From an uncultured Acidimicrobiaceae bacterium (GTDB lineage: Bacteria; Actinomycetota; Acidimicrobiia; Acidimicrobiales; RAAP-2), in assembly GCA_963842415.1 (NCBI GenBank), contig CAWJGN010000003.1, positions 225,931 through 289,930 on the forward strand: 64,000 nucleotides of DNA, written 5' to 3'. The notes below the pieces were generated by a model, which was given only the letters and a program-made list of their open reading frames with translations, searched no databases and was not told the DNA's origin. Within the stretch, counting starts at the first letter, position 1, and the number at the start of each line of letters is the position of its first letter. The position numbers were made by a program, and so were the translations under genes. This document shows positions 2,868 through 63,218 of this stretch, in pieces.

Positions 2868-3617
2868 ATGAGCGGTGCCATGAATCGTATGCAGACTAGA
2901 ATCACGATCAGGCGCAAGCGTCTCAGGAGGTCGTTCAGGCGAACAGTTAGACGAACTCGCCGCCGCTTCGATCATCGGCCCGTTGCACATTTTTTGCACA
3001 TCGGCAAAACGGCAGGAACGGCCATGAGGACGCCTCTCATGGAAGTTCAATACAAGACGGCCTTCCGAATGATTCTTCATAACCACAATTGGCACCTTGA
3101 TTCCGTTCCAGTAGGAGAGAAATTCTTCTTCTGCGTCCGGGATCCAGTTGATCGATTCGTAAGTGCCTTTGTTGCCCGGCAACGCCTCGATCAACCTCGT
3201 TGGCTCATTCCCTGGTTGGAAGGAGAAAAAAGGGCCTATGAGCAATTCAGTTCGCCGGAAGAACTGGCAATCTCCCTCAGTGCCGGCGGAGAGCTTCAGA
3301 CAGCTGCTGAGGATGCAATGCGCAGTATTCAACATGTGAGGGCTTCCTATTGGGATTGGTTCATTGATCCCGCATATTTCTTGTCTCGTAAGGATGATCT
3401 TCTTTGGATCGGCCGGCAAGAAGCACTTGATGTTGCTGGCCTCGCTCACACGTTGGGAGTCAAAGACCTCACGATGCCTGACGACCCCATCACAGCGAAT
3501 CGAACGACCAGTCCCAAGCCGGAACTTTCCCCTCTTGCCCGGCAGAATCTTAAGCATTGGTACTCAAAGGACTATGAGTTTTTGGATCTTTGCAACGAGC
3601 TGTTCGCGGTGTCCTGA
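2868..3617 (+). CDS. sulfotransferase family protein (Sulfotransfer_2-like)
   Basis: HIGKTAGT (5'-PSB-like loop) and VRDPVDRFVS (3'-PB-like). GGAGAAGG lies before ATG 2868. The gene sits in an AT-richer stretch (45% GC counted for 3061-3120). Confidence 0.72.
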   Translation: MSGAMNRMQTRITIRRKRLRRSFRRTVRRTRRRFDHRPVAHFLHIGKTAGTAMRTPLMEVQYKTAFRMILHNHNWHLDSVPVGEKFFFCVRDPVDRFVSAFVARQRLDQPRWLIPWLEGEKRAYEQFSSPEELAISLSAGGELQTAAEDAMRSIQHVRASYWDWFIDPAYFLSRKDDLLWIGRQEALDVAGLAHTLGVKDLTMPDDPITANRTTSPKPELSPLARQNLKHWYSKDYEFLDLCNELFAVS

Positions 3618-3753
3618 ACTCAGTATTCCAATCCGCCGCCGCCACACGAAACCTTCGTCCGTCCGATGCACGTCTCCGATTCTGCACGCTCCCGCGGCGT
3701 GGGTGGAGGCCGATGTCACCGGAGGCTCGAATTCCGAATTACATCGTGACCTG

Positions 3754-4467
3754 TCAAATGGCGCGATGCGGACGCCGTACCCTCTGCGTCACTCTCCGCG
3801 CAAACGACAATCTCGGTCGCAAAGGAGGGACCAGGGCGCTCTTCACCGTGGTGTCTACGTACGTGCCCGTCGTGTCATTGAATGAGAAGCCAGAGGATCG
3901 TTCGATGAGGAACTGGCGGCCTGGTAGTGCCACGATCGGCGCATCCATCGCCTCAGCAAAGTACACGGCATAAGGAAAAATGAAGGTTGGTTCAAACTGC
4001 TCTTGGTGCTGCCAGACCGATGAACAAAAGTCGTCGCCCCCAATGAATCCACCGGGGCGCACCTTTGGCCAGACCCGCATGAGATCGATCGTGATGCCCC
4101 GGAGCGTATGGTCCCCGTCTATGTAGGCGAAGTCCAGGGATTCGTCGGGAATGGACTGGATGACGTCGCTGGTGCGACCACGAAGAATTACTCGCTTTGA
4201 CTCCCAGCGGCTCGTGCGGCGAAGGGCTTCTGCGAAAATCTCCTCAAAGCGGGCTTCCGCCACGTTCGCTGGTTTGTTCCAGTCATCGAGGTGTCGCCAG
4301 GGGTCGATCAAGTAGTAGGTGACGATGTCGGGACAGTTCGTGAGTAAGCTCTCCGCCAATTGACCCTTGAAAACCCCAACTTCCGCAACTCTCCTCAGCC
4401 TGTGTCGAGTGAGGAACTCAGTCCAGATCTCCAACCGAGAGCCCTGTACGACCGCTAGCTCGCTCAC
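3754..4467 (-). CDS. class I SAM-dependent methyltransferase (TylF/Methyltransf_24-like)
   Basis: VAEVGVFKGQ, FAYIDGDH and RPGGFIGGDDF motifs; GTG start 4467; AT-richer than the flanks. Confidence 0.72.
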   Translation of the reverse strand: MSELAVVQGSRLEIWTEFLTRHRLRRVAEVGVFKGQLAESLLTNCPDIVTYYLIDPWRHLDDWNKPANVAEARFEEIFAEALRRTSRWESKRVILRGRTSDVIQSIPDESLDFAYIDGDHTLRGITIDLMRVWPKVRPGGFIGGDDFCSSVWQHQEQFEPTFIFPYAVYFAEAMDAPIVALPGRQFLIERSSGFSFNDTTGTYVDTTVKSALVPPLRPRLSFARRVTQRVRRPHRAI

Positions 4468-5012: not shown

Positions 5013-5232
5013 GTCAGTACCTCAACAGTGGGAGCGACGGGACGTCTGACGCCAGCGCAACCCCTCAAGGTGCGGGTGGGTGTCGGCCTCGGTGATGATC
5101 TCTCGGCTGAGGCTTGCGATGGTGGTGCGGGCAACCGTGCTCATACCCGTATTGGAGCAACCGGGTGTGACGAGCGAACAGGCGTTCGTCCAGGTCAACG
5201 GGGCAATCTGTGGGGGGAGTAGCGTCACCGTG

Positions 5233-5916
5233 ATGGCATCAGTGGAGGGTGCAAAGAGGCGGGTGTCTGCGCGCGTATTCAAGGTGATCCGGCCGTACAT
5301 CGCTCAGGGCACCATCCGAAAATGCGTCGACGACGACTTCTACGCCCCGCGCTACGTCGAGAGCTACGGCAGCTTCACGAGGCGAGCCGACATCTCCACG
5401 CGCGGGATCGGTGGTCTCGAAAAGCCGTCCAGCCACATCCGACGCGAGATTGTCCAGTTCGTGAACCAAGCCAACGCGGAGCGACCGATCACACGGCTCC
5501 TTCTCCCCGGAGAGCCGAAGGCTGTCGTGCCGGCGTATGCAGATTGGCTGAAGATCGACCGCAATCAGATCGTGACCGCGGGTCTCGACGAAGGCGCCGA
5601 CTTCGACTGGAACTACGAGAACGACCCGCCGCCCGGTATGGGGACCTACTCGCTCATCGTGTCCCAGGCGATGCTCGAACACCTCATCGACCCCTACAAG
5701 CACGTCAGGGATCTGTACGCACTCCTCGACGAGCATGGAGATTTGATCCTGCACACCGTCACACCGGGCTACCCCTACCACCGCGTCCCCATCGACAGCG
5801 TGCGGTTCTTCCCCGACTGGTTCGAGAGCGTGGCCGAGCGGATCGGGGCCGAGGTGAGGGGCAAGTTCATCGGGGACCGGCGCATCATGTACCGCCTCAC
5901 GCGACCTGGTAAATGA
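5233..5916 (+). CDS. hypothetical protein, methyltransferase-fold-like C-terminus
   Basis: ORF 5080..5916; internal ATG 5233 used. SLIVSQAMLEHLIDPYKHVRDLYALLDEHGDLILHT resembles the post-motif-I region of Methyltransf_11 proteins, but no clear GxGxG was seen. Confidence 0.4.
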   Translation: MASVEGAKRRVSARVFKVIRPYIAQGTIRKCVDDDFYAPRYVESYGSFTRRADISTRGIGGLEKPSSHIRREIVQFVNQANAERPITRLLLPGEPKAVVPAYADWLKIDRNQIVTAGLDEGADFDWNYENDPPPGMGTYSLIVSQAMLEHLIDPYKHVRDLYALLDEHGDLILHTVTPGYPYHRVPIDSVRFFPDWFESVAERIGAEVRGKFIGDRRIMYRLTRPGK

Positions 5917-6912: not shown

Positions 6913-6929
6913 GGTGATCAGTCTGGCTG

Positions 6930-6943
6930 TTCTGGATCGAGAA
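6930..6943. promoter_or_regulatory. imperfect 14-bp palindrome, candidate TetR operator in the divergent intergenic region
   Basis: TTCTGGATCGAGAA pairs at 6 of 7 positions. It lies between the TetR start (6912) and the DUF385 start (7020). Confidence 0.25.
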
Positions 6944-7490: not shown

Positions 7491-7503
7491 GCCGGCGGGG
7501 CAT

Positions 7504-9900: not shown

Positions 9901-10852
9901 CTACTGCTCTACCGCGTAGCCCAACGCACGGACGCGGGTCAGCCGGTCGTGGCCGAACACCGTCTCGGGATCGAGCTCGGCCCGCGGGCGCGTGATCGCC
10001 GACTGCGGAATGGCCACCAGCTCACGGAGAACACTCTCGGGAGGATCCAGGTCCAAGAACCTCACGAACCTGGTGACCTCCTCTCTCGGGTTCGCGCAGA
10101 TCGCGTCGTAGCTCAGGAGGAAGAATGTGCCCTGCGGGAGCGCCTTCCCTTGCTCGATCGCGGCCTCGTTCGCGCGGATCCAGTAGTCGAGCGACGCAGC
10201 CGGGGCAGGAGTCAGCGCACCGTTGCGAACACCAAAGCGGGACCCCCACCGGCGCACCTGTAGTTGATTGCGGCTCTGGGCCATATGGAACCCGTTTCGG
10301 ATCACGTGGACGTAACGCAGTCGATCACCAAAGTGGGTATGCAGATGCCGTACGAAGAGGTGGCTGTTCGGCTCCTTCCACCCCCATACGGGTGAACCGG
10401 GCGCATCGTCCTCCCCCGATCGGAGCAGGCTGGTGACGCGGGCGCGCAGCCAGGCCGGCGGCCGGTCGTCGACTCAGACGGTCGTACCGCCACCAGTGCC
10501 GGTCACGCCGAAGCGCCTCGTCGAGAGTCCTGCGGTCCTGTGCGCTGAACTCCACGCGGCCCGTCATCGCCGTTTCCAGGGTCGCCAAGGCTCGGGACAC
10601 GGAGCTCTTCGGCGCAGGTGCCTCCATATCCCACCGAGGCAACTTGCAGAGAAACGTGAACCAGCGGTTGTCCCCGGCCACATTGAGGTCCGAGCCCGTG
10701 TAGATGTCCAATCGGCGCATGATCTCTTCGACGACCCGCGTCCCGCTGCCTCCGACTCCACCGACGACGATGGGCCCTTTGGGCTCCTCCCCTTCTGTTG
10801 CCGACCGACGCGGGTCCTGGCGCTGCCGCATGCGCCGCGTCACGTTGGACAT
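9901..10852 (-). CDS. sulfotransferase-like P-loop protein, one frame disruption near 10455
   Basis: The N-terminal ORF has VVGGVGGSGTRVV. The downstream frame reads AWLRARVTSLLRSGEDDAPGSPVWGWKEPNSHLFVRHLHTHFGDRLRYVHVIRNGFHMAQS and continues into ORF 9901..10305. Confidence 0.58.
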
Positions 10853-10891: not shown

Positions 10892-11920
10892 TCAACCATC
10901 CGCTCGAGCAAGCCGGGCCGCTTGGAGGTCGCTCAGCGAGTACCAGCGGCGAACGTCGGCCATGGCAGGCCACGGACGAGGCGGACCCGATGCGGCGAGC
11001 GTCTGGTTGACCTCGACCTCCACGTCGTCCCATCGCTGTGCATACACGGCGTCGAGGGACCGGAGGCGACGACTGAAGCCGTCGAGTTGGTTCGTCCCGT
11101 AGAGTGCGGTGCGACGAGAACCGGGGCCAGAGGTGAGCTGCAGCTTGGCCCGTGTGAGGTCTTCGTCACGATATTGGAAGTGATGGGTGACGATGCCGCC
11201 CTGGGGCTCCACGAGATCCTGTGGGCAGATCCCCCAGTGCGACCCGGCCCGGCTGACTATGAAGTTGCCACCGCGATCGAACCGCTGCAGTGGGTGCTTC
11301 CAGTGAGCCCGTTGTCCGCACATGGGTGTCCACACAGGAAGGAATTCGTAGTACAGCGGTTGGAAATCGATCGGGTGGAATCCGGGGAGGTATTCGGGCT
11401 TCTCGTTCGGAAGATGGTTCACGTAGGCCGACCCCACCACGCGGAAACGACGGTCCAGTGTCGCGAGGTACTCGATGAGCGACGTGCCGTCAGGCCCCTC
11501 TGGGAACTCGTCACTGTCGAGATAGAGCCACCAGACGTGCTCCGAACCACACCGCAACGACTCTCGCACGACGACCGCGTTCATGAGCACTTGGGCGAGC
11601 GGCCCGTCGAAGGCGGGCGTCTCGAACACCTCGGCAATGGTGGCGCCAGCTTCCTGGGCCCGTTCCACGGTCGCATCGGTACTGCCGTTGTCGACTACGA
11701 AGACGGATTCCACGCCTTGCGCGAAGGCATTTCGGACGATGGCCGTAATGATGTCCTCGTCCATCCAGGTCTTGACGACGGCGAACAACCGAAAATCGCC
11801 CAGGACGTCGGGGTGGGGCGGGTTGGCTTCGGCGTGACTGGGTCCCGTGTTGTCCGCGGGCTGTGCAGGCCCGCTCGGAGACCCAGCCCGGACCGCACGC
11901 GACAACCGCGGCGCCCTCAT
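10892..11920 (-). CDS. glycosyltransferase family 2-like protein (paralog 1, intact)
   Basis: ATG 11920 inside ORF 10892..12445. FRLFAVVKTWMDEDIITAIVRNAFAQGVESVFVVDNGSTDATV, WWLYLDSDEF and HWKHPLQRFDR. Confidence 0.75.
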   Translation of the reverse strand: MRAPRLSRAVRAGSPSGPAQPADNTGPSHAEANPPHPDVLGDFRLFAVVKTWMDEDIITAIVRNAFAQGVESVFVVDNGSTDATVERAQEAGATIAEVFETPAFDGPLAQVLMNAVVVRESLRCGSEHVWWLYLDSDEFPEGPDGTSLIEYLATLDRRFRVVGSAYVNHLPNEKPEYLPGFHPIDFQPLYYEFLPVWTPMCGQRAHWKHPLQRFDRGGNFIVSRAGSHWGICPQDLVEPQGGIVTHHFQYRDEDLTRAKLQLTSGPGSRRTALYGTNQLDGFSRRLRSLDAVYAQRWDDVEVEVNQTLAASGPPRPWPAMADVRRWYSLSDLQAARLARADG

Positions 11921-11933: not shown

Positions 11934-12949
11934 TCAGCCGCCTCGGACGGGGGAGGTCGGCGCTCCCGGTCGGCGGCTGGGCGGCCCGCTCTGCTCAGAC
12001 ACCCATTGCGCGCGAGCCTCCTCCAGCTCGGCAGGTTCGTACCAACGACGAACACGTTCGAGGTGTGGCCAGAGTGTGGGATGGCTACTGGAGAGCTTGT
12101 TCGGAATGGTGTCGACGTCCGCCCATCGTTGGCTGTAGACGGCGTCCAAAGAGTCGCGACGACGGATGAATCCGTCAAAGCCGCTCGATCCGTGAAGGGA
12201 CGTGCGCGTCGACGTCGGCCCGCACGGTGAGCTCGAGCTTGGCCCGCGTCAGCGTCTCGTCGCGGTACTGGAAATGATGGGTCACGATGCCACCGCTCGG
12301 TTCGATGAGCACTTCGGAGCAGAAGCCCGAATGCGCCCCGTCGTTGCTCATCAAGAAATACCCGTTCCGGTCGAATCGCTGCAGGGGATGCTTCCAATGC
12401 CCGCGTGTGCATGGGGGCCACCGGGCCGGGACGAATTCGTAGCACAAGGGTTGGAAGTCGATGGGATGAAAGCCGGAGAGGTACTCGGGCTTCTCTGTCG
12501 GGAAGTGATTGACGTAGTGGGCGCCCACGAGCCGATACCGGCGGTCAAGAGTGCACAGGTAGTCCCGGACTGACATGCCGTCGGGACCCTCGGGAAACTC
12601 ATCGGTATCGAGGTAGAGCCACCAGACATGATCGGCGCCGCACCGAAGGGATTCTCGAACCACCACCGCGTTCATGAGAGGTTGGACCAGGCGCCCCTCG
12701 AAGGATTCCGTCTGATAGATCTCCGCCACGAGCGCTCCGGCGTCCACCGCGCGCGGAAACGGTGGCATCGGTGCTGCCGTTGTCGACGATGAACACCTTC
12801 GACGCGCCCTGCAGCATGGCGTTTCGAACCGTCGCCTCAATGACATCCTCATCCATCCAGGTCTTCACAACGGCAAACAGATCGAACTCAGGGAGAGTCT
12901 CCGGACGCTCGGGATCTGGCTCGTGCTCGATGTTCCCGAATCCAGGCAT
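11934..12949 (-). CDS. glycosyltransferase family 2-like protein (paralog 2), two frame disruptions near 12765 and 12215
   Basis: Three fragments are collinear with paralog 1: FDLFAVVKTWMDEDVIEATVRNAMLQGASKVFIVDNGSTDATV / RAVDAGALVAEIYQ...WWLYLDTDEF...HWKHPLQRFDR...LTRAKLELT / GPTSTRTSLHGSSGFDGFIRRRDSLDAVYSQRWADV. Confidence 0.68.
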
Positions 12950-13479
12950 AGTCGTCCCCACGGAGCGACCGAGGTGCAGTGCCTTCGTGAGCCGATTGCG
13001 TCTCATCGGGCTCAGCGCGGAACGGGCAGAGCGGAGGCAGCCGTGCCATTCGAACTCTGAGAGGCGGCGTCGACGGTGTACGGCTCCGCAGCGATCAGGT
13101 CGTCTGCGCGTCCGGTGAACAATCCCGGCCCGGCCAGGGTACGAACGGTGCCTGCGGCGCCACCCCGAAACGTCCCGGTGACCACCGCATCGTGACAGCC
13201 CACGCCGTCCGGCCTTGATCCCACGAGCCCAAAGAGTAGTGGCAAACGTCTGCCGAACCCTCGGCCGTCGACCATGCCGGGTGCCGGGTGCACACGGCCT
13301 CGAAACACGATTGAACGTTGCGTGAACACCAGGCGAAAACGGTGATCCTATCGCTCCGGCCTGCACCCCCCTCAATCCACTGCCGAGATCTGGGAGATCG
13401 GAAACCGCGCCTACTGCTCTCCTGCCGACGGGTCCGGCCCAACCGTCCGGGACTGGACCGCTCGCTTGCCGCCGCGGGA

Positions 13480-14242
13480 AGTAGTCGCCTGGATGCGATC
13501 GTCTCGCGTCGTAGAGCGCGATCTCGGTGTTACGGAGTCGTACCACCAAGAGACCATGGCGTTGCGCGGCGTCGTCCACGGCCTTGATCACTGCGGGCCA
13601 TCGGGATGCGTAGTCGTCCCAGACGACGATGCCGCCCGCAGACACCATCTTGAGAGCGTTCTCGGTGTCGGCCGTCACACAATCTGCCTCATGGCCGCCG
13701 TCGACGACGACCATGTCCATGTTCTTGTAGTACGGACTGAAGTCGAATGTCCGGCTGTCACCGTAGAGCTGGGTGATCCGCTGGGCCACAGAGGTGTCCC
13801 TGAACCGAGAACCGGCTCCGTTGACCCCTGCGAGCGCGACGTCGTTCGTTCCGTCGACGTAGTCAGGCGGGAGATCGAGCGTGTAGATCCGTGCCTGGGG
13901 AACCATTCTGCCCAGCAACATGGTCGTGGCGCCCTCGTAGGTGCCGATCTCGAAGATGCGCTCAGGCTGGCGAAGGCCCGCGAGCACGGCGAGGCAGTAT
14001 TGCTCGAGCGGATCCATGTTCCAAAGCCGGTAGCGCACGTCTCCCATCGGGACCACCTGACGCCTCGACCCGCGGTAGCTTTCAATGAAATCCACCGGGA
14101 GTGCCCTGGGCTCCTCGTCAGCCCTGAGACCGGCGTTGAAAAGCTGTTGGAGGAAGGCCTTGTTCCGTGCGTTGCGGGCGAACGATCGGACCGCCCTGCC
14201 CCAGTGGTGCGCGTTCACCAGCTCATCGTCCGGCCAACACAT
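13480..14242 (-). CDS. class I SAM-dependent methyltransferase (O-MT family 3/Methyltransf_24-like); 3' end uncertain
   Basis: IFEIGTYEGATTMLL, VVVDGGHEADCV and GGIVVWDDY. The ORF stays open to 12599 through an Arg-rich stretch that does not look like coding sequence, so the 13480 end is an estimate of the domain end, not a stop. Confidence 0.7.
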
Positions 14243-14293: not shown

Positions 14294-15365
14294 TCAGACA
14301 CACGCACCTGCCGCGGTGACGTCGATCGGTTTTCCGGCGTGAACCGCCGACCGATACGCCGCATCAACGAGGCGATGAGCGACCACGGCAACCGCGACGC
14401 CGGGGTCGGGTGCCGTCCCTGCGCTCACTGCGTCAAGGAAGGCCCGGTCTGCCTCGACGTAGGCCCGCACCGCCAGTCCGACCTCGCCGTGGGGCAGGGG
14501 TCAGCGCGTCGACCCACGGCGGGGGCGGGCAGGGCCGGACCTCCGTACCCCCACTCGTCTGCACGTGGAGTGGACCAGTGAACTCATTCTCGAGCCACGC
14601 CACAGCATCGCGGCAGAAGATCTCGACGCGACGGGTCGAGCCGCGGCTGAGGACGTCATGCCAGATGCTGGTGAGCTGCGCCTGGGCGCCCGATGCGAAC
14701 GAGAGCGACACCGTGGCCACGTCCTCCACGCCCTCGTAGCCAGCGTGGTTCTCCGTACGCCCGCTCACGGCGTGCACATCGCCCAAGCAGAAGCTCAGGA
14801 TGTCGACGTCGTGGATGGAGTGTTCGATCAGGCAGCCGCCGCCTGCCTGCACGACGTCGGCGCGCCAACGTGATGCGTAGGTGCCCCGAATAGGAAAGTA
14901 CTGGTCGTCCCGGAACACGGCTGCCATCGGTGCGCCGAGGCTGCCACCCTCCACCAGCTCGCGCAGCGCCCGGAAAACTGGCGCGCTCCGCAGAACCAGG
15001 CCGCACTGGGCGGGCACCCCTGCGCTGCGAACCGCGTCAGCTAAAGAAATGGCAGAGGGGAGATCTCGATCGAGCGGTTTCTCGCAGAAGACCGCCCGGC
15101 CGGCCGCGAGAGCCGCATCGACGGCGGCGCGGTGCGCTCCCGTCGGGGTGCAGATCCAGATTGCGTCGCAGCGGCGGGCCACCTCCGCAGCGTCAGCCAC
15201 GGCCTCGGCACCCAGCGTGTCGGCAAATCCTGCGGCCCGGCGTGTCTTGGGGTCGTACACCGCGGTAATGGAGGCTTCGATAACGCCTCCGTCGATCATC
15301 GCCTTCAGACCGAGCCCGTGCGCCCAGGCTATGAGGCCCGTCCCGACGAAGCCGACGCGTAACAT
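14294..15365 (-). CDS. Gfo/Idh/MocA family oxidoreductase, one frame disruption near 14495
   Basis: RVGFVGTGLIAWAH Rossmann start and FCEKP. The C-terminal segment HGEVGLAVRAYVEADRAFLDAVSAGTAPDPGVAVAVVAHRLVDAAYRSAVHAGKPIDV, ending at TGA 14294, is in another frame. Confidence 0.8.
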
Positions 15366-15403: not shown

Positions 15404-16186
15404 TCACGGTTCGTTCGGCTTCGTCATGATCGATATTCGATCACCGAAGCGAGGAACGCCGCATGGGTCGTCCACACTCCACCTCGTGAACTGACGCTGC
15501 AACACCAGGCCTGAGTCTCCGATCCAGCTGGAAACATCCTTGGCCGACACGTTGGATCGCCAACCGTCGCTGTCTTCACCTCTCCCCATGGAGATCACCT
15601 GGTACAGCCGGCGACCCCGGTCCCCGACGCTCCTGAGCCCTCCCATCCACAAGGTGGACTGCCGTCGGTTCGCGTGATGAAGGATCGCGACCCCTCCGGG
15701 CCGCAGCACGCGGTAAATCTCCGCGAGGTACCTGCGGAACTCCGTTGCGGCGACGTGAACGAAGGAATCGTACGACCAGACCAGATCTACCGATTCGGTG
15801 CAATCGGGGGGTAAGGCGTCACCTGGGGTTTGGAACGTCTCCAATCGAGGGTCAGAGAACCGACTACGGCACATCTCGAGACACGTCGGACTCAAGTCCA
15901 CCAAGACCAGCCGCGAGCAAGGTTGCTCCAAGAGCTTTTCCGTCCAGCGGCCGTGCCCAGGACCGATCTCAAGGACTACCGCATCGGGCCCAACGTACGG
16001 GACGATGAGGTGCTGAATCAGAGACTGCTTCCACTGCTCGTAGGAAACACCGCAGCGAGCTGCCTGGCCCTTCCATTCGTCGCCGCCCTCATCCCACACA
16101 TGATCTTCATCCCACTCCTTGAGATTCTCCGCGACGGAGTTGTCACCGGCTCGTCGAAATCGACCCACCCTTGAAGTCACCGCCAC
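15404..16186 (-). CDS. class I SAM-dependent methyltransferase
   Basis: VLEIGPGHGRWT (motif I), LVLVDLS and LRPGGVAILHH. Confidence 0.8.
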   Translation of the reverse strand: MAVTSRVGRFRRAGDNSVAENLKEWDEDHVWDEGGDEWKGQAARCGVSYEQWKQSLIQHLIVPYVGPDAVVLEIGPGHGRWTEKLLEQPCSRLVLVDLSPTCLEMCRSRFSDPRLETFQTPGDALPPDCTESVDLVWSYDSFVHVAATEFRRYLAEIYRVLRPGGVAILHHANRRQSTLWMGGLRSVGDRGRRLYQVISMGRGEDSDGWRSNVSAKDVSSWIGDSGLVLQRQFTRWSVDDPCGVPRFGDRISIMTKPNEP

Positions 16187-16233: not shown

Positions 16234-17277
16234 TCAGGAATCAGTCCGAGCCGGGGCGGCGACGCCGTTCGCGCCTGGATCATCGGCGTCAGTGCTTTCT
16301 TCGACGGAACTCAGCACGGGACCCTTGCCTGTCACCCGCCAGAGCGCGTTGGTCGCGCGAAAGAGCCGCGACCGCTTGAGCCACTTGAGGTCGTGTTGCG
16401 CTGTCTGCATCGCCGTGGTCACCGCCTGCCCCGCCCATGTCAGGCTGATGACATCCGAGACCCACAAGGGCTCTGGTGGAAGCTCCGGCTGTGACCATCT
16501 TTCGTGGGCTCCCAGGCGGCCTCGGAGAATCTCGAGTATGGGTTGCTGCTCGGATTCCAGCGTGCCCTGAGCGTTGGATCGCCGATTGTGTCGTAATTCG
16601 CCGTGCAGCACGCGTGCTGCCCGATCCGAACGATCCGCTCCGGGTGTGATGCCGTTGGCATTGAGGAATCTCACGAGGTCGTTCACCCACAGGCCCGGCT
16701 CATCGAGAACTCGTGCGTACTCGATCACCAAGACCGGCAGCCCGACCAGTGAAGCCAAGGATTGCCGGACGTAGCGGTGCCAGAGAGCGAGACTCAAGGT
16801 CAAGGGGAACTCGTTTCGCTTCTGCAACGAAAGGGCCACTTCAAGTGGGTCGCGGAAAACAAGGATTGCCACCGGTTCGCGCGGCAAGACCTTGCGCCAC
16901 AGAGGGAGCGTCAGACACAGGCGGGGATCCTTCATGACACGAGGCGGCTCGGCCGCAATTGATCGCACTAATTCGGCTGCCCGCGATCTGAGAGAACTCA
17001 TCACCTCGTCATCGGACACTTCCCAACTGTTCGGGAGGCGCGGCGGCGCCGACCACGTACCCCCGAGGTGTCGCAAAACGCTTTCGTCGAACTTGGTGAG
17101 CTTGTCGCTCTCCCAGTACCCAAGCTCGTTGTAGAGATCACCATTGATGAGGTCATCCGGAGCTGGGGCAGACAGGCCCAGCTCGGCCAAGCAATTCGCC
17201 GTTGCCGAGGTGCCGCTTCGATGCATCCCGATCACAACCGCATCACGGCTTCCGAACGCGTCCGACCCCGAGCTCAC
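16234..17277 (-). CDS. sulfotransferase family protein (intact)
   Basis: VVIGMHRSGTSATA (5'-PSB loop), VMKDPRLCLTLPLW and FRDPLEVALSL (3'-PB). Clear paralog of the C-terminal half of ORF 61146..63218. Confidence 0.8.
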   Translation of the reverse strand: MSSGSDAFGSRDAVVIGMHRSGTSATANCLAELGLSAPAPDDLINGDLYNELGYWESDKLTKFDESVLRHLGGTWSAPPRLPNSWEVSDDEVMSSLRSRAAELVRSIAAEPPRVMKDPRLCLTLPLWRKVLPREPVAILVFRDPLEVALSLQKRNEFPLTLSLALWHRYVRQSLASLVGLPVLVIEYARVLDEPGLWVNDLVRFLNANGITPGADRSDRAARVLHGELRHNRRSNAQGTLESEQQPILEILRGRLGAHERWSQPELPPEPLWVSDVISLTWAGQAVTTAMQTAQHDLKWLKRSRLFRATNALWRVTGKGPVLSSVEESTDADDPGANGVAAPARTDS

Positions 17278-17330: not shown

Positions 17331-18336
17331 TCAGCCGATGAGGCCCAACGCCTTCACCTCGTCGCGCTCTGCCAGCAACTCGTCGGTCGTGATGCCGATG
17401 CGCTCGGTCGCGAAGTCGTCGCGTGCGAAACCATCGACGACGGTCCAGTCGCCCTCCCCATCGGAGGCGACCGGGAAGCCGAACTGCAGCCCCTCCGGGG
17501 TGCCGTACTGGCCATCACTGGCGACGGCCACGGAGAAACAGTCGCCGAGCGGCGTGGCCGAGCGGAGGCTGGCCACGGTGTCGATTGCCGCCGCGGCCGC
17601 CGAGGCGGCCGAGGACGACCCCCTCGCGTCGATGATGGCGGCACCGCGCTTTTGCACCGTGGTGATGAAGCTCTCCTCGCAGCCAATCGGTGTCGGTGAT
17701 GACGTCCGTTGCCCGCTTGCCGCCGATCAGTGCGTTGGCGAAATCAGGGAACTGGGTCGCGGAGTGGTTGCCCCAGATGGCCATGTTGGTGACGTCACCA
17801 ACCAGGACGCCGGCCTTGCGGGCCAGCTGGGCCTTGGCCCGGTTCTCGTCGAGGCGCGTCATGGCGAACCAACGCTCGGCTGGCACCTCGGGGGCGTTGG
17901 ACCGTGCAATCAGGCAGTTGGTGTTGCAGGGGTTGCCCACCACCAGGATGTGCACGTCGGGGTCGGCGTTCTCGGCGATGGCCCGGCCCTGTGGCTTGAA
18001 GATGCCACCGTTGACGTTCAGGAGGTCACCGCGCTCCATGCCGGCCTTGCGCGGCACCGATCCGACCAGCAGCGCCCACGATGTCCCGTCGAAAGCCGTC
18101 TTGAGGTCGGAGGTCGCCACGATGTCGTGCACCAGCGGAAACGCGCCGTCGTCGATCTCCATGCAGACGCCCTCGAGCATCTTCATCGCCGGCTCGATCT
18201 CGAGGAGGCGCAGCACGATGGGCTGGTCCTCGCCGAGGAGCTGTCCCGAGGCGATTCGAAAGAGGATCGAGTAGCCGATCTGGCCGGCCGCACCGGTGAC
18301 CGTGACGTGGATCGGGGACTTCGATGCCGATGCCAT
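17331..18336 (-). CDS. mdh: malate dehydrogenase, one 1-nt frame disruption near 17670
   Basis: ATG 18336. [34 protein letters not shown] and IWGNHS. The C-terminal part ([17 protein letters not shown]...) is in ORF 17331..17657. The junction reads gag c ttc atc acc. Confidence 0.9.
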
Positions 18337-18410
18337 GAGCGAGGGATCCTTTCGTGGTATCGAGACGAGGCCAAGAAGCTGGAATGGGGGGAGTTTGCCG
18401 AAGCGACGGC

Positions 18411-22351: not shown

Positions 22352-22376
22352 TCGACGACGTCGTCGCGGGCGACGC

Positions 22377-23534: not shown

Positions 23535-23567
23535 CGCCGCGCTGAAGCTCGGAGCCCTGTCTCCGGC

Positions 23568-25007: not shown

Positions 25008-25008
25008 G

Positions 25009-57034: not shown

Positions 57035-57719
57035 ATGATCGAAGGTTACGGTATGCCCCCCGCGCAGGGCACGGTGAGGGTGGCGACGAGGCGCGACGTG
57101 CCTGCAGTCGCAGCGCTGCACGGAGTCGCGATCGGTGAGGGTTTTCTGTCTACTCTCGGCGACCGGTTTCTGTCCCGCCTCTATTCGCGCATCGTCGCGT
57201 CGTCCCACGGATTCCTCCTCGTGGCAGACAGTCCCGAGCTGTCGGTGGGACAGAAGTCGGGTCTCGCGGGCTTCGTCGCCGGTTCCGCTGAAGTCGGTCG
57301 GCTCTACCGCGAGTTCCTGGTGCGAGATGGGCTCTCTGTCGCGGTGTCCTCGACTACGAGACTGCTGCGATCGTTGCCTCGGGTGATCGAGACCCTCCGC
57401 TACGGGGCAACCGACGAGCCTGCTGGAGACGGACCATCCTCAACCGCTGGAGCACAGGGTCCCGAGACGGAGTTGCTGGCCCTCGCAGTGGATGGTGCCG
57501 AACGCCGACGTGGTGTCGGGACTGACCTCGTGGAGGCCTTCTTGCGAACCGCCACGCGCCACGGGGTCGTCTTCCGCCCGCGTCGTCGTCGGTGGGGAGA
57601 ACCACAGCGCGATCGCGCTGTACAGCCGCGCCGGCTTCAGCGAATCCACCCGACTCGAACTGCACTCCGGAACCGAGTCGCTCCTCATGCGGGTCGGTCT
57701 GCACCGCGCACTGCAGTGA
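57035..57719 (+). CDS. GNAT family N-acetyltransferase, one frame disruption near 57572
   Basis: VRVATRRDVPAVAALH and LALAVDGAERRRGVGTDLV. The second frame carries ARVVVGGENHSAIALYSRAGF and ends at TGA 57717-57719. Confidence 0.62.
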
Positions 57720-57734
57720 CGGAGAACCTCGCGC

Positions 57735-58687
57735 GTGGCCGCCGGCGCGTTCGTCATCTCGATACTCGCGACCCCGTTGGCGGCGCGGTTCGCCGTACGG
57801 GTGCAGCTGGTGGATCGGCCCGGGGCTTTGAAACCTCAAGCCCACGCCACGCCCTATCTGGGCGGTGTCGGGCTCGGTTGTGGCGCCGCAGTGGGCGCGG
57901 CCGTGCTCGACCCCTGGCTGTTGGTGCCGTTGGGAATGGCGTTGGCACTGGGCACCGCAGACGATGTCCGACCACTGGCCCCCTTCACCCGGGTGCTGGG
58001 GACATTGGCGACCGGTCTGGTCCTTGCCGCGGTCATCTCGACGCGTTTCGGTGATGCCGGGTTCCTCCTCGTGCCCGTGGCATCCATTGCCCTCGTCAAC
58101 GGTTTCAACCTGCTCGACGGGCTGGACGCGCTCTGCGGCTCGGTGACCCTCATCGGAGCCGCAGGCTTCGCTTTCCTCTTGAGCGGAGACGCCCGCGGCT
58201 TCGCTCTGGCGCTGGCCGCCGCCGCCGCCGCGTTCTTGTTCTTCAACCGGCCGCCCGCCAAGGTGTACCTCGGAGACGGCGGCGCCTACTTCGTGGGCAT
58301 CTCCATGACCGCGCTGCTCGCGACCGCTTGGGCTCCTGGAGAAGGTCGAACGACGGGAGTCGGGGCTCTTGCGCTCGTGGCTCTTCCCCTCGTCGAGGTC
58401 GCCCTGGCACTGTTCAGGCGAGTGGCGCTCCGGCCGCTCGCTTCTCTCTGGTGATCGCGATCATCCCTACGACGTCTTGGTCCGGTCGGGGTGGAGCATC
58501 CCTCGGACGGTCGCCGCCTACGCCCTGGCCGAACTCGTCGCCCTCGCTCTGGCAGTTCTGGCCTCACATCTGAGAGTCCAGCTGGCGTGGGCGGTCGTGG
58601 GCGTCACGGCAGCTCGGCCTTCTTGCTGCCGGCCTCGGGGCAGGAGGATCTCCGTGTTCGAAATCGATCGACAAGCTCTCGACGTGA
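57735..58687 (+). CDS. WecA/MraY-family polyprenyl-phosphate sugar-1-phosphate transferase, two frame disruptions near 58425 and 58610
   Basis: VDRPGALKPQAHATPYLGGVG, VNGFNLLDGLDAL and LGDGGAYFVG. Then GDRDHPYDVLVRSGWS. The last frame ends in a TGA overlapping the next GTG (GTGA at 58684-58687). Confidence 0.7.
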
Positions 58688-59820
58688 CCCAACGCATCTA
58701 CCTGTCGCCGCCCGACGCTGGAGCCCTCGAACGTGAGCTCTTGCTGGACGCCTTCGACTCGAACTGGCTCGCACCGCTGGGACCCCACGTCGATCTCTTC
58801 GAACGCGAGCTGGCCGAACGAGTCGGTCTCGAACACGCCGCCGCACTGTCCAGCGGCACGGCGGCGCTCCACCTCGGTCTCCTCCTGGCCGGCGTCGAGG
58901 CCGGTGACCAGGTCATCGTGCCATCGCTGACGTTCGTCGCCACGGCGAACGCCGTCCGCTACCTCGGAGCTGAGCCGGTGTTCGTCGACTCCGATCCGAA
59001 GAGCTGGAACATGGACGCCTCACTGCTGGCCGACGAGCTCGCCAAGCGAGCCCGTCGCGGCGACCTGCCCGCCGCCGTGGTGAGCGTCGATCTTCTCGGT
59101 GGATGCCCCGACTACGACGTCATCGAGGCTGCTTGTGATGAGTTCGGGGTCCCGCTGGTGGAAGACGCGGCCGAAGGGCTCGGAGCGTCGTATCTCGGAC
59201 GCCCGGCGGGTTCGTTCGGCGAGTGCGGCGCCTTTTCCTTCAACGGCAACAAGATCATCACGACGAGCGGAGGCGGCATGCTCGTCTCGAGGTCAGCCGA
59301 ACTCGTGGCGACCGCCCGGTTCCTGGCGAGCCAGGCGCGCGAGCCCGCAGTGCACTACGAGCACGAGCAACTCGGCTACAACTACCGCCTGAGCAATCTG
59401 CTCGCCGCGCTCGGCCGCGGGCAGCTGCGTGGCCTCAGCGAACGGATCGCGCGTCGCAGGGAACTGAACCAACGCTACCGGGAGGCTTTCGAGGCCGTGG
59501 ACGGCATCGACATGATGCCAGTCGGCCGAGGCGTGGAGCCCAACTACTGGTTGACGTGCATTACCGTCGATCCGTCTCGCGCCGGGGTCGGAAGAGAGCA
59601 CATACGACTGGCGCTTGAGTCCTTGAACGTGGAGTCGCGACCGGTGTGGAAGCCGCTCCATCTTCAGCCGCTCTACCGCGGCGCACGAGTCGATCGGCGG
59701 AAAGGTCGCCGCGCAAATCTTCGAACATGGACTGTGTCTACCCAGTGGCACGGCCCTCTCGTCGCCGACCAAGAACGCATCATCGCCGTCGTCCTGGACC
59801 TGACCCGCCGCGGACGTTGA
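58684..59820 (+). CDS. DegT/DnrJ/EryC1/StrS (PglE/EpsN-like) sugar aminotransferase with a compensating pair of frame shifts (about 59695 and 59760)
   Basis: IYLSPPDAGALERELLLDAFDSNWLAPLGP, SSGTAALHL, FSFNGNKIITTSGGGML (PLP-Lys region) and GYNYRLSNLLAALG. The segment GGKVAAQIFEHGLCLPSGTAL is readable only in a shifted frame. Confidence 0.82.
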   Translation: MTQRIYLSPPDAGALERELLLDAFDSNWLAPLGPHVDLFERELAERVGLEHAAALSSGTAALHLGLLLAGVEAGDQVIVPSLTFVATANAVRYLGAEPVFVDSDPKSWNMDASLLADELAKRARRGDLPAAVVSVDLLGGCPDYDVIEAACDEFGVPLVEDAAEGLGASYLGRPAGSFGECGAFSFNGNKIITTSGGGMLVSRSAELVATARFLASQAREPAVHYEHEQLGYNYRLSNLLAALGRGQLRGLSERIARRRELNQRYREAFEAVDGIDMMPVGRGVEPNYWLTCITVDPSRAGVGREHIRLALESLNVESRPVWKPLHLQPLYRGARVDRRKGRRANLRTWTVSTQWHGPLVADQERIIAVVLDLTRRGR

Positions 59821-59824: not shown

Positions 59825-60865
59825 ATGTCCACGTCACGCTCCGATCAGCCCCACTTTGCCTATCTCTTGCTGAGCCACAAGAACCCCCAGGCAGGTCGAA
59901 GCGCTGGCGCGCCGGATCCTGGACTTGAGCCCGCACGCGCAGATCGTGGTGCACCATGACTCACGCGCGGCCGACCCGCCCTGGGGTGGGCGCCCGTCGG
60001 CACCAATCCACCTGGTCGAGCGGGGGCGAGTGTCGTGGGGGGACTGGTCGATGATCGAGGCCACCTTGCGGATGGTTCGCTACGCGGTGGACCGACTCGA
60101 TGCCGACTGGTTCGTGCTGGTGTCGGGCGAGCATCGTCCCGCAGTTGACCTTCACCAGTGGGAAGCGGACACCGCGGCGTCGGGAAATGACGCACTGCTC
60201 GGTGCCGAGCGGCTTCCCGACTCGTCTTCGCTTCGGCTCAGCCGATTTCGAGCGCAATCAATACCTCGCACGAAGTCGTCACCGCTGGCGGCTGTTGAGC
60301 GCGACCGCGTCGAGCGGCTGTCCATCGCGCCATGGGCCTCCTGATGAAGATCAGTACGCGTACACGACCGATCGTGTCGATCGAGTACGTCCATCGGCGC
60401 GACGCCTGGGCCGTTGGTTGGCGCCGGCGCTCACGCCCGGAGCGAGGCTGGTCCTTCTACCGGGGCTCGCAGTGGTTCGCGTTGAACCGGCGGGCAGCGA
60501 AGGCGGCCTTGGCGATCGATCCGGACGTCGCCGAGTGGTTCGAGCAGAGCTGGATCCCCGACGAGGCGTACCTGCAGACGGCACTCCGTCGAGTGCCCGG
60601 GCTCAAGATCGCGGACTCACTGACCACGTTCGACCTCGACACGCCGGCGGAGCCCTATCCCGGATGGAGGCAGCTCTCGCCCCGAGACGTTCCCGCCGTC
60701 TTGGCCTCGGGACTGCCGTTCGCGCGAAAGGTCGACCCCGCCGCACGCCCGGAGGTCGTCGCGAGTATCGACGCGGCCGTGGACAGGCAGCGGGCAGGCG
60801 GGGAAAGTCGCACGACAGCCACGACCTCTCGCGCGCTGGAACACCAGCGTCGGGAGCGGACATGA
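59825..60865 (+). pseudogene. GT14 (Core-2/I-Branching, Branch domain) glycosyltransferase paralog with about 4 frame disruptions
   Basis: Collinear with 61146.. : FAYLLLSHKNPQ / QVEALARRILDLSPHAQIVVHHD...VSWGDWSMIEATLRMVRYA...DWFVLVSGEHRP / RLRFGSADFERNQYLARSRHRW / ...IVSIEYVHRRDAW...YRGSQWFALNRRAA...IPDEAYLQTAL. Shifts are near 59887, 60215, 60300 and 60335. Confidence 0.6.
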
Positions 60866-61000
60866 TCCGCACCGGCCTGGTCTACACTTTGTCTTCCGGA
60901 GGAGACCGTCGAAGGCGCGCCGCTCGTAGACGGGTTCGCGGAACCGTCACGCCCGGCCGCGGGGCTGAGCAACGCAAGCAGCAGTCGGAGGGTCACTGCA

Positions 61001-61105
61001 ATGTCCAGCGATAAAAGCGCAGGCTCGGCCGACGCCGTCGCCGCTCGCTGTGCCTACCTGATCCTCTCCCACAAGAACCGGTCCGTAGTCAGGAGAGGAC
61101 CGTGA
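61001..61105 (+). pseudogene. orphan duplicated 5' stub of a GT14 gene (34 codons)
   Basis: MSSDKSAGSADAVAARCAYLILSHKN then stop. CAYLILSHKN mirrors FAYLLLSHKNPQ (59850s) and FAYLILTHKDPQ (61215s). Confidence 0.4.
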
Positions 61106-61145
61106 GCAAGAAAGCGGCGCACTCAGGTCCGAGGGAGGCGCCCTC

Positions 61146-63218
61146 GTGATGCCACGCCACGACGGGTCCCGCTCGGTCACGAGGGAAGAGGAGCCGGCCG
61201 GCGAAGAGATCGGCCCATGTTTCGCCTACCTGATCCTGACCCACAAGGACCCGCAACAAGTAGAGGCCCTCGCCGCCCGGATCCTCGAATTGAGCCCGCA
61301 TGGTCAGGTCGTCGTCCACCATGACCTCGCTTCTGACGACCTGCCGTGGGGAGGTCGGCCGCCGAGCCGCGTCCACTTCGTCGAGAGGGATCGAGTCCTC
61401 TGGGGCGACTGGTCGATCGTGGAGGCCACTTTGCGCTTGGTCCGCTTCGCGCTCGAGGAACTGCACGCTGACTGGTTCGTCGTGTTGTCGGGTGAACACT
61501 GGCCGGTGGTCGATCTCCGCGCGTGGGAGGACGCATCGGTGGCTTCGGGGATCGACGCGTTCGTCGAGGCGGACCCCCTGCCGAAACGGCTGCGTTTCGG
61601 CAGAGCCGATGAAGGCGCAAATATGTATCTGTCACGGTGCATCCATCGGTGGGTGACCGTACGGCAGCCTCGCCTGGCAGCCGCCCACCGTGCCGTCGGC
61701 GGGGTCTTTAAGCTCGGCCTCTACATCGCGCCGATACTGACCGTGGAGTACTCCCACCGGCGTGAATCGTGGTTCTTCGGCCGCCCTCGGGCGCGTCGTC
61801 TCCTGAAGAACTGGGTGTTCTACAAGGGCTCCCAGTGGATCGCATTCAACCGTCGGGCCGCTGAGACCATCCTTCAGGCGGACCCGGCTGTGACCGATTG
61901 GTTCCGCCGCGGCCACATTCCCGACGAAACGTATTTCCACACGGTCTTGCGCCACGCCGAGGATCTCGTCGTCACCGCTGACGTCGTGACCTATGTTCCG
62001 CTGGGGTCGACACCGCCGATACCGAAGTGGATGGTCCTCAAGTTCGAGCATTTGCCGGCCGTGTGGAGTTCGGGTGCAGCCTTCGCACGCAAGGTCGACC
62101 TGGCCAACCGGCCTGAGGTCATCCGTGCCATAAACGCCGAAGTCGACCGGGGCCGGGCGGCCGGGGGACTCGGTCGCCCTCACGCACACGATGCGAAGGT
62201 GGACGAGGAGGCGCTGGAGCGAGGCTCACGGCCCAACCCGCCCGCATGCGTTGCCATCGTCGGCATGCACCGCAGCGGCACGTCCGCCACAGCCGGGTTG
62301 CTCGTCGGGTTGGGTCTGGCCGGTCCGAAGGTCGAGGACCTCGTCCCGGCCAACGAGGGCAACGAACGTGGTCATTGGGAGAGCGAAACGGTGCACATGT
62401 GCAACGTGAAGGTGCTGGCCGCACTAGGAGGCGACACCTACGCGCCGCCACCGCCACCGCCGGCGTCCGGCTGGGAGAACGACACCAGCTTCGACCCGAT
62501 GCGGCTCGAGGCGGCGCGATGGTTCGAATCCACCTCAGACGGCAGGCCGCTCGTCTTGAAAGACCCACGGTTGTGCATCACCCTCCCCCTGTGGAAGACG
62601 GCGCTCCCCGATCCTCTGCCGACTCTCTTCGTGCTGCGCGACCCCTTGGAGGTGGCCCGTTCGCTGCAGGCTCGGGACAAACTGCCCATGGTCCTCGGCC
62701 TGGCGCTCTGGGATCGCTACATTCGCTGCGCCGCCCTGAGTCTCGAGGGTTCGCCGACTCTCGTCGTCGACTACGCCGCCATGCTCGAGGATCCGATCAA
62801 GTGGAGCGAGGTCATCTGCGGATACCTCGAGGAGCAAGGCCTGCACCTCGGCGCTGATTCGAGGAGCGCCGCCCTGACCTTCCTCGACACTGGACTCCGG
62901 CACCAGCGGGGCGACGATTCCGACTACGAGCCGCTCGCCGCAGCGCACCGTGAGGTCCATGCCATCCTCTCGGAGCGGGCCGGAACTCACTCCACCTGGG
63001 AGCCACCCGAGCTGCCCCCCGCTCCTCCCTGGGCGGACTACGTACTTCAGCTGCGGCGCCAAGTCGTGCTGACCCGGCACGAGCTCTACTGGACCCAGTC
63101 GTCGCGCGTCTTCCGAGCCGCCAGCGCGCTGTGGCGCCTGACGGGCAGCGGCCCGCGAGCCTCGCTCGCGCAGTTCGGAATGGACCAGGAAGAGACAGAC
63201 CCCGACCCCTGGTTCTGA
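61146..63218 (+). CDS. fusion ORF: N-terminal GT14 (Branch) glycosyltransferase domain plus C-terminal sulfotransferase domain (690 aa, uninterrupted)
   Basis: N-terminal half: FAYLILTHKDPQQVEAL, VLWGDWSIVEATLRL, DWFVVLSGEHWP, YKGSQWIAFNRRAA and IPDETYFHTVL. C-terminal half: VAIVGMHRSGTSATA, LKDPRLCITLPLW and LRDPLEVARSL, collinear with the stand-alone sulfotransferase 16234..17277. Confidence 0.72.
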   Translation: MMPRHDGSRSVTREEEPAGEEIGPCFAYLILTHKDPQQVEALAARILELSPHGQVVVHHDLASDDLPWGGRPPSRVHFVERDRVLWGDWSIVEATLRLVRFALEELHADWFVVLSGEHWPVVDLRAWEDASVASGIDAFVEADPLPKRLRFGRADEGANMYLSRCIHRWVTVRQPRLAAAHRAVGGVFKLGLYIAPILTVEYSHRRESWFFGRPRARRLLKNWVFYKGSQWIAFNRRAAETILQADPAVTDWFRRGHIPDETYFHTVLRHAEDLVVTADVVTYVPLGSTPPIPKWMVLKFEHLPAVWSSGAAFARKVDLANRPEVIRAINAEVDRGRAAGGLGRPHAHDAKVDEEALERGSRPNPPACVAIVGMHRSGTSATAGLLVGLGLAGPKVEDLVPANEGNERGHWESETVHMCNVKVLAALGGDTYAPPPPPPASGWENDTSFDPMRLEAARWFESTSDGRPLVLKDPRLCITLPLWKTALPDPLPTLFVLRDPLEVARSLQARDKLPMVLGLALWDRYIRCAALSLEGSPTLVVDYAAMLEDPIKWSEVICGYLEEQGLHLGADSRSAALTFLDTGLRHQRGDDSDYEPLAAAHREVHAILSERAGTHSTWEPPELPPAPPWADYVLQLRRQVVLTRHELYWTQSSRVFRAASALWRLTGSGPRASLAQFGMDQEETDPDPWF

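Follow-up and report, generated by a model that had tools for sequence, protein, structure and literature searches.

Sulfotransferases and methyltransferases in four glycan gene modules of an uncultured Acidimicrobiaceae bacterium

Known sulfotransferase-bearing glycan clusters and the window

Sulfated glycans of bacteria are barely documented beyond cyanobacterial exopolysaccharides (EPS) and a few lipo-oligosaccharides, and have been described as essentially cyanobacterial (PMC8205485, PMC13390465). Two gene clusters serve here as points of reference for a stretch of 64,000 nucleotides (hereafter the window) from contig CAWJGN010000003.1 (positions 225,931 to 289,930, assembly GCA_963842415.1) of an uncultured Acidimicrobiaceae bacterium, in which five sulfotransferase (ST) domains lie among genes for glycan synthesis. 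The xss (synechan) cluster of Synechocystis sp. PCC 6803, carried on a megaplasmid, encodes two STs, eight glycosyltransferases (GTs) and Wzx, Wzy and PCP proteins, and sulfation was demonstrated chemically (PMC8205485). The wps-1 cluster of Actinoplanes missouriensis is a compact Wzx/Wzy EPS cluster with two STs, each from a different family and one of them heparan-sulfate-ST-like, and an S-adenosylmethionine (SAM) methyltransferase; knockouts gave phenotypes, and a sulfated polysaccharide was proposed (PMC13390465).

The window resembles xss in that STs of distinct subfamilies stand among many GTs, and the same Pfam families are involved (PF00685, PF03567 and PF13469). It differs from xss in carrying five ST domains, fusions of GT and ST domains (GT::ST), several methyltransferases and an MsbA-like ABC exporter, in having no Wzx, Wzy or PCP hit, and in being divided into four separate modules in an actinobacterial host; sulfation is here a prediction from the genes. 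With wps-1, compared by description only, the window shares a host from the Actinomycetota, STs of several families including a heparan-sulfate-ST-like member (here termed ST-D) and a methyltransferase, whereas it has more ST domains and families (five and three, respectively), GT-ST fusions, GT14 enzymes, an ABC exporter and a dispersed layout.

Single enzymes from other systems offer further comparisons. The animal heparan-sulfate 3-O-sulfotransferases (3-OSTs; PDB 1t8t and 1zrh) resemble ST-D over ~180 aligned residues (E = 3e-15), in which the 5'-phosphosulfate-binding (5'-PSB) and 3'-phosphate-binding (3'-PB) motifs and E-x-HFF are kept, whereas ST-D is a bacterial, presumably cytoplasmic protein of ~287 aa that lacks a Golgi anchor, and the window encodes no heparosan synthase. 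NodH of rhizobia and Stf0 of mycobacteria are, as the window STs are predicted to be, soluble, bacterial, glycoconjugate-acting enzymes that depend on 3'-phosphoadenosine-5'-phosphosulfate (PAPS), and Stf0 is among the fold matches of one of the window STs (ST-C). They differ in their acceptors (lipo-chitooligosaccharide and trehalose, respectively), in having no GT fusion and in lying outside multi-ST glycan modules, and the sequence relationship is remote. The window fits a known kind of glycan cluster with tailoring sulfotransferases. We hold it rather probable that it carries four separate glycan modules of a soil Acidimicrobiaceae lineage, that their STs and methyltransferases tailor a sulfated and methylated envelope glycan, and that the frame breaks in many of the genes are assembly errors.

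Five sulfotransferase domains of three Pfam families

The gene map was made with a self-trained codon-usage caller combined with Pfam scans of ~66 candidate open reading frames (ORFs), since spurious ORFs are plentiful in DNA of ~66% GC, and with an NCBIfam scan of 10 key proteins. All five ST-type domains listed in a preliminary description, made from the letters of the window alone, were present where it had placed them and kept their motifs, and they belong to the three Pfam families named above; two of them are not intact ORFs in the assembly. Four of the five score above the Pfam cut-off, ST-B and ST-D among them after frame correction.

ST-A (2868..3617, plus strand) scores 28.4 bits on Sulfotransfer_2 (curated cut-off 22) and covers model positions 8-249 of 252; relatives conserve its motifs HIGKTAGT and VRDPVDRFVS. 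Its homologues in two related loci, L023 and L024, share 56-62% identity and adjoin ST-C-type genes. ST-B (9901..10852, minus strand) is a Sulfotransfer_3-type gene with one frame break between 10470 and 10505; the frame-corrected protein covers the full model at 48.2 bits (cut-off 27) and carries the motifs GGSGTRVV and VIRNGFHMAQS. Homologues of ~300 aa are intact in loci L006, L007, L016 and L017, and that of L078, with 309 aa, has a PF13469 match. ST-D (25009..25876, minus strand), a heparan-sulfate 3-OST-like Sulfotransfer_1 gene, has a frame break at about 25286 and after correction scores 56.7 bits (cut-off 22). Its alignment with human heparan-sulfate 3-OST-3A (E = 3e-15) runs unbroken across the frame junction, and GAQKAGTT, LRDPVERFQS and the aligned Glu of E-x-HFF are kept. 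More than 120 intact full-length homologues (57-92% identity) were found. In a metagenome-assembled genome (MAG) of the Pseudonocardiaceae, an ST-D homologue lies beside an ST-C-type gene.

The other two domains are related to each other. ST-C (16234..17277, minus strand) is intact and matches Sulfotransfer_3 at 27.6 bits against 27; GMHRSGTS and RDPLEVA(L/R)S are invariant in 30 homologues. An AlphaFold (AF2) model built on a 30-sequence alignment, with a predicted local distance difference test (pLDDT) score of 86.4, was searched against the PDB with Foldseek. Ranks 1-22 were all sulfotransferases (E from 3e-6, probability 1.0, TM 0.4-0.49), including TPST1/2, the ST domains of CurM and OLS, an Alicyclobacillus sulfotransferase, SULTs, NDST and Stf0, with P-loop kinases ranking lower. 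ST-E forms the C-terminal half of a fusion protein (61146..63218, plus strand), with its ST domain at ~62241-63155 matching Sulfotransfer_3 at 19-21 bits. It shares 42% identity with ST-C over 320 residues (E = 7e-57), GMHRSGTS, NERGHWES, KDPR and RDPLEVARS are invariant in 16 full-length homologues, and the ST half was modelled at a pLDDT of ~90. The N-terminal half of the fusion is a GT14 Branch domain (PF02485; ~61221-62165) scoring 65.3 bits against a gathering score of 23.4; for a fold comparison, the model of this half was set aside with a pLDDT often <50.

Search of the PDB by sequence only gave nothing significant for ST-A, ST-C or the fusion profile, and for ST-B a weak match to the OLS ST domain (E = 0.017). 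No transmembrane segment or signal-like hydrophobic stretch was seen in the hydropathy profiles of the five STs, which are predicted to be soluble and cytoplasmic. Profile searches did not assign the domains to unrelated P-loop families, as shown by the Pfam matches, the match of ST-D to heparan-sulfate 3-OSTs and the predicted fold of ST-C, and, insofar as sequence and predicted structure tell, the five are bona fide PAPS-type sulfotransferases. A further match to the ST-C hidden Markov model at 13015-13347 (minus strand, E = 0.007) was not counted as a sixth domain, as it is without the RSGTS motif. It corresponds to the N-terminal 5'-PSB region, exactly where relatives have an ST::GT2 fusion, and may be a degraded ST-domain relic upstream of GT2b.

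Glycan modules, relatives and a proposed pathway

The link between the STs and glycan synthesis comes from ST-GT fusions, from the operon layout of one of the modules and from a conserved set of WecA, DegT, GNAT and epimerase genes. Relatives were collected by a scan of species-representative genomes, which gave 76 loci, and the window ORFs were compared with the fetched loci by local tblastn. The full-length GT14::ST fusion occurs only in uncultured Acidimicrobiaceae MAGs labelled "MFD...", at 44-91% identity; we take these to be MAGs that the Microflora Danica project obtained from soil with long reads. The ST half alone also matches GT2-ST fusions in the same MAGs and, at 30-40% identity, proteins of Streptomyces, Tahibacter, Xanthobacteraceae and others. 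One of the MAGs, MFD05580.bin.1.96, carries two copies of the whole fusion locus on one contig.

Around the fusion, a block of Pst, Big_3, GNAT, WecA, DegT, GT14, GT14::ST and epimerase genes is conserved, and in ~12 more distant relatives homologues of ST-C, GT2 and ST-B follow immediately downstream of the fusion. Locus L078, a clean assembly, has a tight operon of GNAT, Glycos_transf_4, DegT, Branch, Branch, Branch::ST, a 700-aa protein and Sulfotransfer_3, with genes for an epimerase, a UDP-sugar dehydrogenase and a PglF-like dehydratase on the opposite strand; the 700-aa protein consists of an ST-C-like domain fused to a GT2 domain. Two STs are therefore covalently fused to GTs in this lineage, as GT14::ST in the window and as ST::GT2 in L078. 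The ST/GT2/ST module of the window lies 40 kb from the fusion and is expanded by two methyltransferases, an oxidoreductase and a GT2 duplication. As read from synteny, the conserved core is GNAT, WecA-like, DegT, the GT14 copies and GT14::ST, together with ST-C, (methyltransferase, oxidoreductase, methyltransferase), GT2, GT2 and ST-B. Two to three tandem GT14 Branch paralogues stand upstream of the fusion or include it in L078 (8044-12085), L003, L005, L006, L007 and L014.

The homologues of ST-A and ST-D near ST-C-type genes, together with the L078 operon, mean that ST sets of several families within glycan operons are a trait of the lineage and not a peculiarity of the window. The density of STs had been called unusual at the outset; the five domains are real, but ST-rich modules are typical of the lineage, and a profile of the ST-C/E family gathers 26,341 clusters at 50% identity in public data (9,645 at E <= 1e-30), many of them long and multidomain. 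No characterised member of the ST-C family was found, nor any literature on Acidimicrobiia together with sulfotransferases or sulfated products, and literature on bacterial GT-sulfotransferase fusions held nothing directly relevant.

Where the preliminary description saw one glycan locus, the glycan genes fall into four modules, at 2.9-5.9, 9.9-17.3, 19.7-38.9 and 57-64 kb, with unrelated genes between them and a 10.3 kb variable cassette within the third. Its observation that the STs are interleaved with glycan genes holds, in that they stand in operon-like arrangements with GTs and SAM methyltransferases, most clearly at 9.9-17.3 kb. All genes of this second module are on the minus strand, with intergenic gaps of mostly 38-55 nt. 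In transcription order they are ST-C, a SAM methyltransferase (15404..16186; Methyltransf_25/11, 66.4 bits), a Gfo/Idh/MocA oxidoreductase identified by Pfam (14433..15365), a second SAM methyltransferase (13438..14242; Methyltransf_24, 58.7 bits, with an orthologue of 268 aa in locus L079), the tandem GT2 paralogues GT2b (11961..12973) and GT2a (10892..11905; Glyco_tranf_2_4), and ST-B. GT2a is intact and shares 58% identity with the GT2 half of the ST::GT2 fusion in L078; GT2b is 71% identical to that half and has breaks at 12227 and 12754, both of which are window-specific +1 insertions relative to L079.

Module 4 lies on the plus strand up to its last gene and consists of a GNAT acetyltransferase (57035..57553) with an orthologue in L078, a WecA/MraY-family initiating transferase (57617..58611; breaks at 57732 and 58425), a DegT-type sugar aminotransferase (58618..59820; 295 bits), a stand-alone GT14 Branch enzyme (59855..61014; breaks at 59889, 60220 and 60301, one fragment scoring 26.6 bits against 23.4), the GT14::ST-E fusion and, on the minus strand, an NAD-dependent sugar epimerase/dehydratase (63252..64000) that continues past the end of the window. 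Module 1 holds ST-A, a SAM methyltransferase of the Methyltransf_24 family (3754..4467, minus strand; 50.7 bits against a cut-off of 26.3), a helix-turn-helix-like ORF and a possible methyltransferase (5080..5916, plus strand); no GT lies nearby. Module 3 begins with an MsbA/PglK-like fused ABC exporter (19742..21799, minus strand), GT4 #1 (22375..23545, plus strand), a membrane protein with 11 transmembrane segments by hydropathy (23568..25031, minus strand) and ST-D. The genes of the 10.3 kb cassette follow, and then a formyltransferase (37086-37877, plus strand) and a deacetylase-like gene (37895-38940, plus strand; frame break at ~38560). GT4 #1 is interrupted by at least three frameshifts and one in-frame stop, with +1 insertions falling at 22665 and 22732; its corrected sequence matches Glycos_transf_1 at 98.5 bits.

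Most of the individual assignments in the preliminary description stood up: two GT2, three GT4 and two GT14 enzymes, the WecA-like, DegT, formyltransferase and Gfo/Idh/MocA genes, the ABC exporter and two GNATs were all recovered. Of its roughly five SAM methyltransferases, those near 3754, 13480, 15404 and 28607 are solid, while the candidate near 5233 reaches only 25.1 bits on Methyltransf_23, under the cut-off of 27. Of its two deacetylases, the one at 29241-29984 was borne out and the deacetylase-like gene of module 3 stays below threshold at 17 bits. The protein it had called Wzy-like is the membrane protein with 11 transmembrane segments, which gives no Wzy hit and a weak PMT_2 match (21.2 bits against a cut-off of 26.1), and may be GT-C/PMT_2-like or polymerase-like. 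No Pfam hit to Wzx/MOP, Wzy_C, Wzz/PCP or OPX was obtained in the ~66 ORFs scanned, and the only candidates for export and polymerization in the window are the MsbA-like exporter and this membrane protein.

Sulfated and methylated envelope glycans in soil Acidimicrobiaceae are a reasonable reading of this gene content, and the domain identities and synteny described above allow a pathway to be sketched, in which the substrates, the order of steps and sulfation itself are proposed. An epimerase or dehydratase, a DegT aminotransferase and a GNAT acetyltransferase form the classic route to the nucleotide of an acetamido-dideoxy-hexose (diNAcBac/QuiNAc4NAc type). In the window, the 4,6-dehydratase/epimerase, DegT and GNAT enzymes would accordingly supply an acetamido-dideoxy sugar nucleotide, and the WecA-family enzyme would transfer a sugar-1-phosphate to polyprenyl phosphate to start a lipid-linked oligosaccharide, which the GT14 and GT2 enzymes may extend at the cytoplasmic face. 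The soluble STs could then O-sulfate specific residues of the lipid-linked glycan with PAPS from enzymes encoded elsewhere in the genome, the methyltransferases would O-methylate other positions, and the ABC-type exporter or flippase would move the product outward, with the protein of 11 transmembrane segments possibly taking part in export or transfer. Module 3 may be a separate, partly variable tailoring and assembly set for the same glycan or for a second one.

An abundant uncultured lineage of soil actinobacteria thus carries multi-family ST sets within glycan operons, GT::ST fusions included. If the STs do sulfate glycans, glycan sulfation by soil bacteria would be much commoner than appreciated, with implications for soil matrix chemistry and cation binding, and the lineage would offer a pool of soluble bacterial carbohydrate sulfotransferases, one of them HS-3-OST-like (HS, heparan sulfate), for heparin-like and other sulfated polymers.

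Several observations weigh against a sulfated glycan built by these modules. ST-E alone falls below the Pfam cut-off of 27 bits, and the NCBIfam scan of the five STs matched no model; as no such model is reached, most of the five are called hypothetical by annotation pipelines. The nearest structures to ST-C come from tyrosylprotein and polyketide sulfotransferases rather than from carbohydrate-acting ones. The preliminary description had noted no PAPS-synthesis gene in the window, and a Pfam survey of the window agreed with motif scans for APS kinase, CysN, CysD and ATP sulfurylase across the window and 79 loci in finding none there or in ~1.5 Mb of flanks of relatives, so that a supply from elsewhere in the genome is assumed. 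The O-antigen cluster of Aeromonas salmonicida contains a gene with an ST domain, and the solved O-antigen structure has no matching sulfate (PMC4483657). In the window, unrelated genes separate the modules and module 3 is in part a variable cassette, which makes it uncertain that the modules act together, and it is possible that some genes are truly decaying, given the multiple breaks and in-frame stop of GT4 #1 and a relaxed stand-alone GT14.

The opposite extreme, a single co-functional locus from 2.9 to 63.2 kb that builds one very heavily sulfated and methylated surface glycan, would account for five STs and several methyltransferases within 61 kb alongside GTs, an initiating transferase and an exporter, and for the contiguity of modules 2 and 4 in the more distant relatives. 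We nevertheless find it unlikely, because ~25 kb of unrelated genes intervene (mdh/icd, GH18, sortase, surface proteins and the Pst transporter), the modules lie on different strands, the segment at 26.6-36.9 kb is dispensable in a close relative, and homologues of ST-A and ST-D stand in other contexts in relatives. The layout itself speaks against one contiguous locus, being interrupted at 6-9.8, 17.3-19.6 and 39.7-56.3 kb. In the comparison of synteny, which the preliminary description had proposed as a check, the module 4 block proved conserved and modules 2 and 4, and only these, are contiguous in some other relatives; the region as a whole is not a unit.

It also seems improbable that the proteins have the ST fold but serve acceptors other than glycans, such as protein tyrosine, lipids or small metabolites, or that some are catalytically inactive. 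Such a role would suit the best fold matches of ST-C, which are tyrosylprotein sulfotransferases and the CurM and OLS domains, as well as module 1, where ST-A and the methyltransferases have no GT nearby, and the Aeromonas ST-domain gene cited above. It would leave aside that STs of this lineage are fused to GT14 and GT2 domains and sit in conserved operons with GTs and sugar-nucleotide enzymes, that ST-D is closest to the carbohydrate-acting heparan-sulfate 3-OSTs, and that the PAPS-binding motifs are invariant. More specific, and quite unlikely in our view, is the proposal that the tandem GT14 enzymes of core-2/I-branching type and the GT::ST fusions build a branched, sulfated, O-methylated glycan similar to mucins or glycosaminoglycans on the conserved neighbouring Big_3 or sortase-dependent surface proteins or on the cell wall. 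Were it true, the Actinomycetota would have their first sulfated envelope glycoconjugate, and bacteria an example of coupled glycosyl-transfer and sulfation enzymes.

Frame breaks, the variable cassette and neighbouring genes

The reading of four modules with functional tailoring enzymes depends on how the frame breaks are understood. ST-B, ST-D, GT2b (two breaks), GT4 #1 (at least three and an in-frame stop), the WecA-like gene (two) and the stand-alone GT14 (three) are all split, and so are the deacetylase-like gene, a HIBADH-like gene, the pstC/pstA junction and the essential mdh. The splits in two STs and many neighbouring genes had been overlooked in the preliminary description. Locus L079, an independent JGI contig of 90.7% nucleotide identity, is syntenic with the window at 11.85-26.6 and 36.95-37.5 kb, and its ST-D (285 aa) and mdh (334 aa) are intact; frame correction of mdh, GT4, ST-B and ST-D in the window gave full-length domain matches. 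At 53722, inside the ORF at 52033-54294, a +1 insertion merges the pstC-like and pstA-like genes into an ORF of 753 aa; in all relatives the two are separate genes that overlap and are read in different frames.

Nucleotide alignments to L079, L003 and L008 revealed 22 well-flanked single-base insertions specific to the window (for example at 12227, 12754, 14502, 17671, 22665, 25286, 37054, 57554, 57732 and 58425), against 4 differences in the opposite direction relative to L079. Half of the insertions (11/22) lie within a few bases of GCGC, compared with a background of 0.10-0.13 (binomial p = 4e-5), and GCGC is the most enriched of the 256 tetramers at these sites (p = 1.8e-6). Divergence of the broken WecA gene is dominated by the third codon position (ratio 3-4.5), as in the intact DegT, pstB and fusion genes, indicating that the broken gene is under purifying selection; the stand-alone GT14, with a third-to-first/second position ratio of 1.5, is the only gene that looks relaxed. 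Because relatives have these genes intact and selection on them is purifying, most of the frame breaks are most likely systematic consensus errors of long-read assembly and not gene decay, the errors possibly arising at a methylated motif. A decaying locus, in which the split STs, WecA-like, GT2b, GT4 and GT14 genes are true pseudogenes and little or no sulfated glycan is made, could draw on at least 20 frame disruptions, on at least three frameshifts and an in-frame stop in GT4 #1, on the relaxed GT14 and on a HIBADH-like relic with an in-frame stop, but is very unlikely when the essential mdh and the pst genes are disrupted as well, when nearly all disruptions are +1 insertions enriched at GCGC, when the corrected proteins are full length and conserved with the broken WecA still constrained, and when the orthologues are intact in independent assemblies. 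The methodological lesson is that apparent pseudogenes may be motif-linked assembly errors and are not to be taken as biology.

Structural variation between relatives was found in module 3, where 26602-36945 (10.3 kb) is absent from the otherwise syntenic L079, in which the ST-D side directly abuts the formyltransferase. Part of module 3 is therefore accessory, which makes it less likely that all the genes contribute to a single product. The cassette encodes an amidohydrolase_2 protein (27345-28529), a solid SAM methyltransferase (MT_23/25; 28607-29437), a polysaccharide deacetylase with DUF3473 (29241-29984), GT4 #2 (29981-31114), cupin and DUF362 proteins, a PaaK-like ligase (34506-35537) and GT4 #3 (35534-36715). 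Near its ends there is only a 10-bp direct repeat, CACGGTGGCG, compatible with chance, and no tRNA lies nearby; no tRNA was found anywhere in the window, and a megablast query of 8 kb matched nothing among plasmids. At 26150-27340 (minus strand), an in-frame stop and a frame break interrupt the HIBADH-like (NAD_binding_2-type) gene. After it come a fragment similar to the C-terminal end of an adenylate-cyclase or regulator-type protein (GSGIVFDDRGRHTLKGVP) and a small ORF of WxDPxGRHExRW type; this stretch, at the left cassette edge, is probably the scar of a rearrangement. The cassette includes the low-GC DNA at 32-36 kb, which is one of two islands, at 2000-6000 and 32000-36000, with 58-62% GC compared with 65-70% elsewhere, where GC3-based gene calling failed to resolve frames and Pfam evidence was used for that reason. 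Both contain glycan-tailoring genes, which suggests horizontal acquisition of these islands.

The genes between the modules belong to other functions. An F420H2-quinone-reductase-like gene, a GNAT and a DUF347 membrane protein lie between modules 1 and 2 (6-9.8 kb). The housekeeping genes mdh and icd (17333..19607, minus strand), outside the glycan pathway, follow module 2, with the frame break of mdh at 17671; that they lie between ST-C and the glycan ABC exporter in the same orientation (17333-21799) is odd, yet L079 has the same order (5593-9949). Modules 3 and 4 are separated by ~17 kb (39736-56289) of GH18, sortase, surface-protein and Pst genes, comprising a 944-aa GH18 protein, a sortase, PstB, PstC/A, two Big_3_5 proteins, a 539-aa PstS-like protein and an 819-aa protein made of a PstS-like segment and one C-terminal transmembrane helix, with unassigned secreted-looking proteins at 42.8-45.7 kb. 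The Pst and Big_3 part of this block adjoins the GNAT-WecA-DegT-GT14 operon in every relative examined.

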